From NCBI RefSeq assembly GCF_058153355.1, contig NZ_CM177019.1: 64,000 nt of DNA; one strand, given 5' to 3'. Positions 34,201 to 37,200 of the stretch are shown here, piece by piece. Position numbers: made by a program. The stretch's first letter is position 1; each line of letters opens with the position of its first letter.

Positions 34201-37200
34201 AGGCGCTAAGCAACAGTGGATTGAGTTTGAGTATCACAACCTCGACAGGTTTGAGGAAATATTCATCTCGATGGACGTTGATGATGTTGGTCGTGAAGCT
34301 GCAAGGGAAATCGCAAGCCGACTCGGTGAACATCGTTGCCGTCTTGTTACTCTGCCGTACAAAGACATCAACGAATGCCTGATGAACGGTGTTACCGAGG
34401 ATGAAATCTGGCAGTACATCGGCACGGCATCCTACTTCGATCCTGAAGAACTCTACAGCGCGCGAGAGTTTTACCAGGACACTATCAACGCTTTCTACGG
34501 CAAGCAGCAGTATCTGTTTAATCCACCGTGGGAATCTCTGGCAGATAAATTCCAGTTCCGTGAGGCAGAGTTGACGCTGGTCAATGGTGTGAACGGTCAC
34601 GGAAAAACGGAGGTTGTCGGGCATATGGCACTTGAGGCAATGCGTCAGGGGGTGAAGACGTGCATCGCGTCACTTGAGCTGAAGCCAGGTATTCTCCTTA
34701 AGCGCCTTACCCGTCAGGCGACGTGCTGCAAGATGCCGCCAGTGCTGGAAATTGACTCTGCATTTAAATTTTATGACGAAAGACTTTGGGTGTTTGGCCT
34801 GACCGGAACGGCGAAAGCCGACAGGCTGATCGAAATATTCGACTACGCTCGCCGCCGATACGGCATCCAGTTATTCATCATCGACAGCCTGATGAAATGC
34901 GGCATAGGTGACGATGACTATAACGGGCAGAAAGCATTTGTTGACTCGATTTGTGACTTCAAAAACAAAACAAACTCCCACGTCATTCTCGTTACTCACT
35001 CGCGAAAAGGAGACAGCGAAGAAAAACCAACCGGGAAAATGGACGTAAAAGGCTCTGGAGCGATAACAGACCTGACAGACAACCTTTTTATCATCTGGCG
35101 TAACAAGGCTCGCGAGAGAGCGTTACAGAGAGTTCAGAGTGGTGAAAAGATGTCAGAGAAGGACGAACAGTTACTGGCGTCTCCTGCATCTGTTTTGATG
35201 CTTGAAAAACAACGTAACGGCGAAGGCTGGGAAGGTGGTGTCCCGTTGTTCCTTGACGAGCAATCGCACCAGTTCCTGCAACTTGAATCAGGATCGCCAT
35301 ATAGCTACATCGCCAATATGCCGAAATCGGAATATGACGAAGCGTGGCGACAGGAAAACATAACGGAGTATTAAATGACCATCTACATCACAGAGCTTAT
35401 AACAGGTCTGCTGGTAATCGCAGGCCTTTTAATTTGGGGGAGAGGGAAGTCATGAAAAAACTAACCTTTGAAATTCGATCTCCAGCACATCAGCAAAACG
35501 CTATTCACGCGGTACAGCAAATTCTTCCAGACCCAACCAAACCAATCGTAGTAACCATTCAGGAACGCAACCGCAGCTTAGACCAGAATCGAAAGCTTTG
35601 GGCTTGCCTTGGTGACGTCTCTCGTCAGGTTGAATGGCATGGTCGCTGGCTGGATGCAGAAAGCTGGAAGTGTGTGTTTACCGCAGCATTAAAGCAGCAG
35701 GACGTTGTTCCTAACCTTGCCGGGAATGGCTTTGTGGTAATAGGCCAGTCAACCAGCAGGATGCGTGTAAGCGAATTTGCGGAGTTATTAGAGCTTATAC
35801 AGGCATTCGGTACAGAGCGTGGCGTTAAGTGGTCAGACGAAGCGCGACTGGCTCTGGAGTGGAAAGCGCGATGGGGAGATCGGGCTGCATGACTATCAAA
35901 TCAAATACGCCAGCACACGACAAGGACTGCTGGCAAACGCCACTTTGGCTTTTTGATGCGCTGGATATTGAGTTTGGATTCTGGCTGGATTCGGCAGCGA
36001 GCGACAAAAATGCTCTGTGCGCTCACTGGCTAACTGAGGCCGACGACGCGCTCAATTCTGAGTGGGTAAGCTACGGTGCAATCTGGAATAATCCACCGTA
36101 CAGCAATATCAGGCCGTGGGTGGAAAAAGCCGCTGAGCAGTGCATACAACAGCGACAGACGGTAGTTATGCTTGTGCCAGAGGATATGTCAGTCGGATGG
36201 TTCAGCAAGGCTCTGGAGAGTGTTGACGAAGTTCGCATCATCACTGATGGACGGATTAATTTTATCGAACCATCGACAGGGCTGGAGAAAAAGGGAAACA
36301 GTAAAGGCTCAATGCTGCTGATTTGGCGACCGTTCATCAGTCCCCGGCGAATGTTTACTACCGTATCCAAAGCGGCATTGATGGCGATCGGGCAGGGCGT
36401 CAGGAGGGCGGCATGAGGCGACAGCGACGAAGTATTACCGACATAATCTGTGAAAACTGCAAATACCTTCCAACGAAACGCTCCAGAAATAAACGCAAGC
36501 CAATCCCAAAAGAATCTGACGTAAAAACCTTCAACTACACGGCTCACCTGTGGGATATCCGGTGGCTAAGACATCGTGCGAGGAAATGACTATTTATCCG
36601 GTGCGCCGCCAGAATGACGGCGCGGTGTGGTTAAACGAAGCGGATCTGGAGTTTTTTTCCAGTAGCGCGGGCGAATTTTTTTAGGGTGGCAAATGATGGG
36701 CCGCTGATACCTGATGCGAGATTACTTTCCATTCTGGTGATCGCGGTCGCTTTTGTTCCCATTCGCTCGGCAACTTCAGCCTGAGTTAAGCCAGCTTCTT
36801 TGCGTGCTGCCAGCATTTCATCAAGCAGTGCGAATTCGTCAGCGATAGCGTCGTATTCTGCTTTAAAAGCCGGGTCTTCCATCCATTTGGCTGCCATTTC
36901 GTCGTGTGTCATGGTGGGGAGAGTGCGTTTACCAGTCATGCTTAACCTCCTTCATTCTGGTTTCAGCTTTCTTGCGTTCGGCTGGCGGTGTTTTCTGCGT
37001 TTTCTTTACAAAACTATGCAGCATGATGATGCGTTTCCCTGTCAGAGTGCAGTAAAAAACACGCGCGATCCCATCGTTGCCTTTAATTCTGAGTTCGAAA
37101 AGCCCGTCACCAAAGGCGCTGGTGTGAGGTTCTCCGAGATTGCTGCCATATACCTTCATACGTTCAACGAGATGTTGGTATCGGGCACGCATACTCAATG

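Follow-up and report, generated by a model that had tools for sequence, protein, structure and literature searches.

What is the product of the small gene lying between ninB and ninE in the nin region of a lambdoid prophage, and what would a phage gain from a second Dam in hosts that already have one? The question is raised by a 64,000-nucleotide stretch of contig NZ_CM177019.1 (NCBI RefSeq assembly GCF_058153355.1), referred to here as the window, in which the first-pass annotation had described a gene at 35889-36416 as encoding a phage-borne, orphan, Dam-like N6-adenine methyltransferase. We consider, with considerable confidence, that this gene, dam, is a lambdoid nin-region gene encoding a predicted single-domain, S-adenosylmethionine (SAM)-dependent N6-adenine methyltransferase of GATC, probably expressed from pR and with a role proposed in lytic growth. 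As judged from its sequence, it is an intact copy of the well-known dam gene common in lambda-like phages of E. coli and Shigella. The gene and its immediate surroundings are as follows.

35889-36416, + strand: dam, phage N6-adenine DNA methyltransferase of 175 amino acids (aa; PF05869/TIGR01712), stop codon included; from the open reading frame (ORF) listing, the sequence and family profiles.
36090-36101, + strand: codons for NPPY, residues 68-71, catalytic motif IV; from the sequence and the family alignment.
35452-35892, + strand: ninB (orf), recombination mediator; PF05772 with 184 bits, phrog_72.
36413-36589, + strand: ninE; PF05322 with 148 bits.
35873-35878, + strand: putative Shine-Dalgarno sequence GGGGAG, 10 nt 5' of the dam ATG and within the 3' end of ninB; read from the sequence.
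36402-36407, + strand: Shine-Dalgarno-like AGGAGG, 5 nt 5' of the ninE ATG; read from the sequence.

The dam ORF consists of 528 nt, i.e., 175 codons and a TGA stop, and the 175-aa frame with its NPPY motif is present at exactly the coordinates claimed. At its 5' end, the TGA of ninB and the ATG of dam share the tetranucleotide ATGA (35889-35892), and the same arrangement is repeated at its 3' end, where the TGA of dam and the ATG of ninE share ATGA at 36413-36416. Gene packing with such overlaps has been described as typical of nin regions (bioRxiv 10.1101/2020.10.05.325894). The translational coupling of ninB, dam and ninE claimed earlier thus holds as far as the position and both overlaps are concerned, and the coupling itself is suggested by those overlaps. 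As a side observation, a single GATC lies close to dam, at 35878-35881, where it overlaps the Shine-Dalgarno-like GGGGAG.

The protein belongs to a well-defined phage family. It matches PF05869, "DNA N-6-adenine-methyltransferase (Dam)", with 219.5 bits (residues 4-169 on profile positions 1-167 of 169; curated cutoff 28.1 bits), and the NCBIfam equivalog TIGR01712, "phage N-6-adenine-methyltransferase", with 263.1 bits (cutoff 97.05 bits). It also matches phrog_111. Scores so far above the curated cutoffs indicate that the match to the phage Dam family is not due to chance. The PF05869-type family is large, comprising 8673 clusters at 50% identity (E <= 0.001), and conservation was read from an alignment of 54 diverse members. 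Five residues (D34, N68, P70, R122, and F125) are invariant in this alignment and ten others (T17, P18, F31, A37, W59, P69, Y71, L95, W104, and N137) are conserved in at least 90% of the sequences; all fifteen positions are kept in the window protein. The first-pass annotation had stated that it would be overturned if a careful alignment showed the catalytic motif to be lost. Such a loss was looked for and is absent, NPPY and the invariant residues being intact. Like the family as a whole, the window protein is a single small catalytic domain of ~170 aa with no separate target-recognition domain.

The family relationship extends to composite proteins. Relatives at ~50% identity carry the Dam domain as a C-terminal fusion to C5 cytosine DNA methylase domains (database relatives P0138, P0139, P0144, P0231, and P0195 were examined), and in one database relative a PAPS-reductase domain lies C-terminal to its Dam domain. 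The C5 fusions support DNA as the substrate of the family and appear to be two-activity phage methyltransferases built on the minimal Dam core.

The gene has no partner endonuclease in its surroundings. None of the eight flanking genes (33.5-39 kb), which include those for a Toprim/DnaB-type primase-helicase, NinB, NinE, a HigA-like helix-turn-helix (HTH) antitoxin, a Gp49/HigB-like toxin, and the antirepressors Ant and Roi, matches a restriction endonuclease in Pfam or PADLOC, and a type II restriction-modification arrangement is thus not found there. The protein itself matches the PADLOC "orphan methyltransferase" (oMTase) models, in agreement with the orphan status assigned to it. A scan of the window for other methyltransferase-like motifs returned an NPPW inside the primase-helicase, a DPPF in a reading frame antisense to the IS4 copies described below, and a DPPY in an ORF of the late region at the window's right end. 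The assignment as a stand-alone, phage-encoded N6-adenine methyltransferase of the nin region is therefore supported by the Pfam and NCBIfam matches and the intact conserved residues.

No solved structure of the family was detected in the PDB by sequence or family profile search; the best profile match there, Mediator subunit Med31, was discarded as a chance match to "WCNPPYS". An AlphaFold2 model was built with the family alignment. The model (pLDDT 94.7, pTM 0.90) shows one α/β Rossmann-type domain followed by a C-terminal helix. Its structural comparison gave the following entries, each with the two values returned.

PCIF1/CAPAM, cap-specific adenosine N6-methyltransferase: 11.3, 148.
M.TaqI: 10.0, 132.
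M.BseCI: 9.8, 140.
MmeI: 9.7, 143.
CamA: 9.1, 144.
E. coli Dam: 8.4, 108.
T4 Dam: 7.8, 105.
DpnM: 7.8, 107.

The model is thus closest to PCIF1 and to γ-class N6-adenine methyltransferases such as M.TaqI, and not to E. coli Dam. Furthermore, the window protein has no sequence-family match to PF02086 (MethyltransfD12, the α class of E. coli Dam and T4 Dam) and no inserted recognition domain. It is accordingly modeled as a minimal γ-like catalytic core lacking a target-recognition domain, and by family it is not a homolog of the host Dam. The term "Dam-like" used earlier remains apt for the target and the family name but not for homology to the host enzyme, given the missing family match and the fold nearer to PCIF1 and M.TaqI.

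The fold and the pattern of conservation suggest how such a core might work. D34, located where strand 1 ends, and the AAS loop that follows it would replace motif I and bind SAM, while NPPY (68-71) together with the invariant R122 and F125, which are motif VIII-like, would hold the flipped adenine. Since there is no recognition domain, sequence recognition must come from the core loops; GATC would be read by those at about residues 36-62 and 120-140, possibly with the help of dimerization. A DNA-bound structure of the enzyme would reveal a novel mode of recognition for a 4-bp target.

The target itself is suggested by characterized members of the family. The T1 and HP1 Dam proteins are GATC-specific. 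Both T1 dam and HP2 dam belong with the window protein, the former by comparison with the family profile (hhalign E 1.6e-40) and the latter by its match to PF05869 (247 bits). The lactococcal enzyme M.Phi93DAM, which is a PF05869 member with 117.5 bits, methylates G(m6A)TC according to single-molecule real-time (SMRT) sequencing, and DpnII resistance and DpnI sensitivity were seen both for the phage DNA and with the cloned gene (PMC4190342). GATC specificity is kept among members that are only 31-35% identical; a window copy 99.4% identical to its closest reference, described next, is therefore very likely to be GATC-specific as well.

This reference is orf32 of VT2-Sakai (NP_050531.1), with which the window protein shares 174 of 175 residues (99.4%). 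The sole substitution, Y62 in the window for H62 in VT2-Sakai, falls in a column that is variable in the family alignment. At the nucleotide level, 10 of 528 positions of dam differ; nine of these changes are synonymous and one gives the change at residue 62, which points to purifying selection on dam. In VT2-Sakai, orf32 sits between NinB and NinE and is alone in the genome in being annotated as a DNA methyltransferase. A second candidate, orf4, the one large early-left ORF without annotation that was examined, was rejected because it is a DUF551 protein, and no other methyltransferase is annotated. By elimination, M.EcoVT2Dam is orf32. This orphan methyltransferase of prophage VT2-Sa is reported in PMC6602927 (citing Radlinska & Bujnicki 2001) to target 5'-GATC-3'. 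The equation of orf32 with M.EcoVT2Dam is supported by the naming of the corresponding Phi24B gene, whose product is 100% identical, as dam in PMC3342100; there, lysogen cultures were found to contain the protein, and induction altered its expression.

The genomic context is that of a lambdoid early region. The 30.5-39 kb part of the window is ~94.6% identical to the immunity, replication and nin region of Phi24B/Min27-type phages that carry Shiga toxin (Stx) 2. The gene order is cI (30873-31580), an O-like HTH protein, the Toprim/DnaB primase-helicase, ninB, dam, ninE, ant, roi, Q, two tRNAs, and lysozyme. One further feature bears on transcription.

35404-35427, + strand: terminator-like hairpin with a T-run in the gap between the primase-helicase gene and ninB, at a position resembling lambda tR2; from a consensus scan.

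With such a tR2-like hairpin 5' of ninB, expression of the nin genes would depend on N antitermination. Terminator-like sites are no more frequent in this region than in shuffled sequence, and the hairpin is thus weak evidence. Having no obvious promoter of its own, dam would be read in the delayed-early pR transcript after N antitermination and translated in series with ninB and ninE via the ATGA overlaps. The simplest view is that dam belongs to the delayed-early genes of pR and is expressed once the prophage is induced or a cell infected. During lytic replication, the enzyme may complete the methylation of GATC sites when phage DNA is made faster than the host Dam can modify it; virion DNA of lambda and P22 is indeed under-methylated by the host Dam (bioRxiv 10.1101/2020.10.05.325894). 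Progeny genomes would then be fully methylated and, on entering the next host, safe from restriction of the MboI/DpnII type, and the phage would be independent of the Dam status of its host. An effect of dam on host gene expression in the lysogen, raised in the first-pass annotation, is speculative, because lysogeny keeps the pR delayed-early operon repressed and Dam is already present in the usual hosts.

Several points weigh against the assignment of a GATC-specific enzyme with a lytic role. A protein modeled with no recognition domain, from a family with no solved structure, is being assigned a 4-bp target. The usual hosts are Dam+, which makes the enzyme seem redundant. The prophage is poor in GATC, with 29 sites observed versus 54 expected in 29000-40500 and 65 versus 107 in 40500-64000 (Markov expectation), which leaves fewer prophage sites to protect; in the host-like left part of the window, the corresponding figures are 109 and 133. 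No phenotype of a dam deletion was found in the literature searched. Finally, IS4 and IS66 insertion sequences (IS) interrupt the prophage, which may be defective, and dam may never be expressed here.

These points lead to the other explanations that have to be weighed. The same lack of a target-recognition domain in the model would suit a relaxed-specificity or non-specific adenine methyltransferase resembling M.EcoGII or Hia5, which would give broad anti-restriction cover with GATC as one of many sites. Prophage-borne non-specific adenine methyltransferases occur in the same kind of strains (PMC6602927, PMC3299994), and DpnI/MboI assays, which detect GATC only, would miss methylation at other sites. 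We nevertheless regard this explanation as very unlikely: the SMRT data for Phi93 show a discrete G(m6A)TC motif, not diffuse methylation (PMC4190342), and the REBASE-based annotation, as reported in PMC6602927, assigns GATC. Enzymes of the Hia5/Hin1523 type are described as having DPPY, an FxGxG motif I and a recognition region of ~90 residues (PMC3299994); the 175 aa of the window Dam contain no FxGxG and leave no room for such a region. That the physiological substrate might be RNA rather than DNA is suggested by the fold match to PCIF1 and by a Stx-phage MT-A70 protein that is annotated as a GATC DNA methyltransferase, yet methylates 16S rRNA together with a bound partner (PMC10810198). 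That gene is a different one (gp5, in the early-left region, of the MT-A70 family, with a DPPW motif and the partner PNB-2), whereas the window Dam has no MT-A70 match and no PNB-2-like partner gene alongside. When cloned, members of the family methylate GATC in cellular DNA, and C5 DNA methylase fusions occur among the relatives; an RNA substrate is hardly credible. The identification of the window Dam with the rRNA methyltransferase of PMC10810198 was rejected, since only PF05869 was matched, the motif is NPPY and not DPPW, and the neighbors are ninB and ninE.

A further explanation concerns the activity of the gene in this genome and not its identity: dam could be an inert passenger in a decaying prophage, an intact ORF that is never expressed. 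The IS4- and IS66-family elements that interrupt the prophage, the repression of nin genes in lysogens, and the supply of Dam by the host would all accord with this. We give it scant credence, as there is no damage to the ORF, to its ribosome-binding site, to either overlap or to any conserved residue, nine of the ten differences from VT2-Sakai are synonymous, and the surrounding immunity, replication, nin, Q and lysis genes are likewise intact ORFs. It is also conceivable, if improbable, that the persistence of dam in ~29% of complete E. coli genomes despite the host Dam reflects a job other than anti-restriction, such as the timing of lytic development or induction via particular phage or host GATC sites, or a non-GATC or RNA substrate fitting the PCIF1-like fold. 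Overall, a GATC-specific phage Dam expressed from the pR operon is the explanation that we prefer.

The gene is widespread. The 1135-bp ninB-dam-ninE block was found in 422 phage records at 90-99% identity. The query coverage is at least 80% in 61 of them, including Sf101, SfI, IME10, HK544, HK140, mEp043, and many Stx1- and Stx2-converting phages, in which the gene is annotated as DNA (N-6-adenine) methyltransferase. On its own, dam is present in 1565 of 5426 complete E. coli genomes (~29%), in up to five copies per genome; there, the Prokaryotic Genome Annotation Pipeline (PGAP) label is "phage N-6-adenine-methyltransferase", with NinB and NinE flanking. The gene, the family, its nin position and its GATC specificity are thus already in the literature and in routine annotation, and nothing at the locus is new. 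As a discovery, it carries little weight. The remaining interest is family-wide and lies in how GATC is read without a recognition domain and in the benefit of a second Dam.

Other features of the prophage and its flank were noted. Between ninE and ant, a toxin-antitoxin-like pair occupies 36631-37339 on the - strand.

36929-37339, - strand: Gp49/HigB-like toxin; PF05973, 90 bits.
36631-36939, - strand: HTH_3 antitoxin; profile match.

VT2-Sakai has only the small orf34 at this place. The same insert is found with 92% identity in the Shigella Stx phages POCJ13 and 75/02 and with 81% identity in PhiR5_2, annotated as HigA/HigB. To the left of cI, two overlapping genes on the - strand (29147-30425) encode a DUF1828 protein of 258 aa and a DUF6978 protein of 170 aa. 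The two give matches to the candidate defence pair PDC-M24B/PDC-M24A of PADLOC (E 7e-11 and 5e-7) and may represent a prophage-borne defence moron.

Two types of insertion sequence are each present twice: an IS4-family element with a 448-aa transposase, whose copies are 97% identical over the 300 nt compared, and an IS66-family element with a 523-aa transposase, whose copies are 100% identical over the 300 nt compared. Of the four copies, one of IS4 type is situated immediately beyond the integrase gene of the prophage; the remaining three are inserted within the prophage, so that it may be defective. The chromosomal flank (window 1-17373) contains nrdB, nrdA, an autotransporter gene (1228 aa), a gene for a UbiG-like methyltransferase, gyrA and a DUF2138 gene, followed by the IS4 copy. 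The positions of these elements and of the features downstream of the nin region are given here.

~14563-16000, ~25191-26630, ~26639-29000 and ~56136-58500: IS copies (two IS4-family, two IS66-family).
16300-17373: lambda-type integrase, left end of the prophage.
39813-40469: Q antiterminator.
40691-40846: tRNA-Asn and tRNA-Thr.
41178-41675: phage lysozyme, ~330 bp after the tRNAs.

In Stx phages, the slot between Q and lysozyme holds tRNAs and stxAB. There is no room for stx after the tRNAs in the window, and the prophage is thus Stx-phage-like but lacks the toxin genes.

Compared with known systems, the closest are VT2-Sakai and the copies in Phi24B, Min27, HK97, Sf101, SfI and other lambdoid phages, which share the length of the gene, its position between ninB and ninE, and both overlaps. 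Relative to VT2-Sakai, the toxin-antitoxin pair after ninE is present only in the window. In addition, ninB of the window (35452-35892, versus 5998-6438 in VT2-Sakai) is a quite different, divergent allele, whereas dam and ninE are alike, with ~98% nucleotide identity. This places a mosaic boundary at the ninB/dam junction and indicates that the dam-ninE block recombines independently of ninB.

T1 Dam, HP1/HP2 Dam and M.Phi93DAM are members of the same family, small orphan enzymes with the NPPY, D34, R122 and F125 core and without a recognition domain. They differ in that they are only 31-35% identical and are encoded in replication or packaging neighborhoods, not beside ninB; T1 dam is located after a helicase gene and Phi93 dam between terminase genes, and T1 Dam (237 aa) has an N-terminal extension and an insertion. 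Adjacency to ninB was thus rejected as a family-wide functional link, since distant members lie beside replication or uncharacterized genes. The Stx-phage MT-A70 methyltransferase M.EcoPA8orf6770P/M.EcoGV is likewise a prophage-borne orphan of Stx-type phages annotated as a GATC adenine methyltransferase. Yet, it is an MT-A70 protein with DPPW, encoded in the early-left region; it requires the co-transcribed winged-helix partner PNB-2 and prefers 16S rRNA (PMC10810198). E. coli Dam, T4 Dam and DpnM, of the α class (PF02086), catalyze the same reaction, reportedly on the same G-m6A-TC target, and have a class I Rossmann fold, but they are proteins of 240-280 aa with a recognition domain between the motifs. 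The likeness of the window Dam to E. coli Dam is thus a matter of functional convergence or, at most, of very remote common ancestry.

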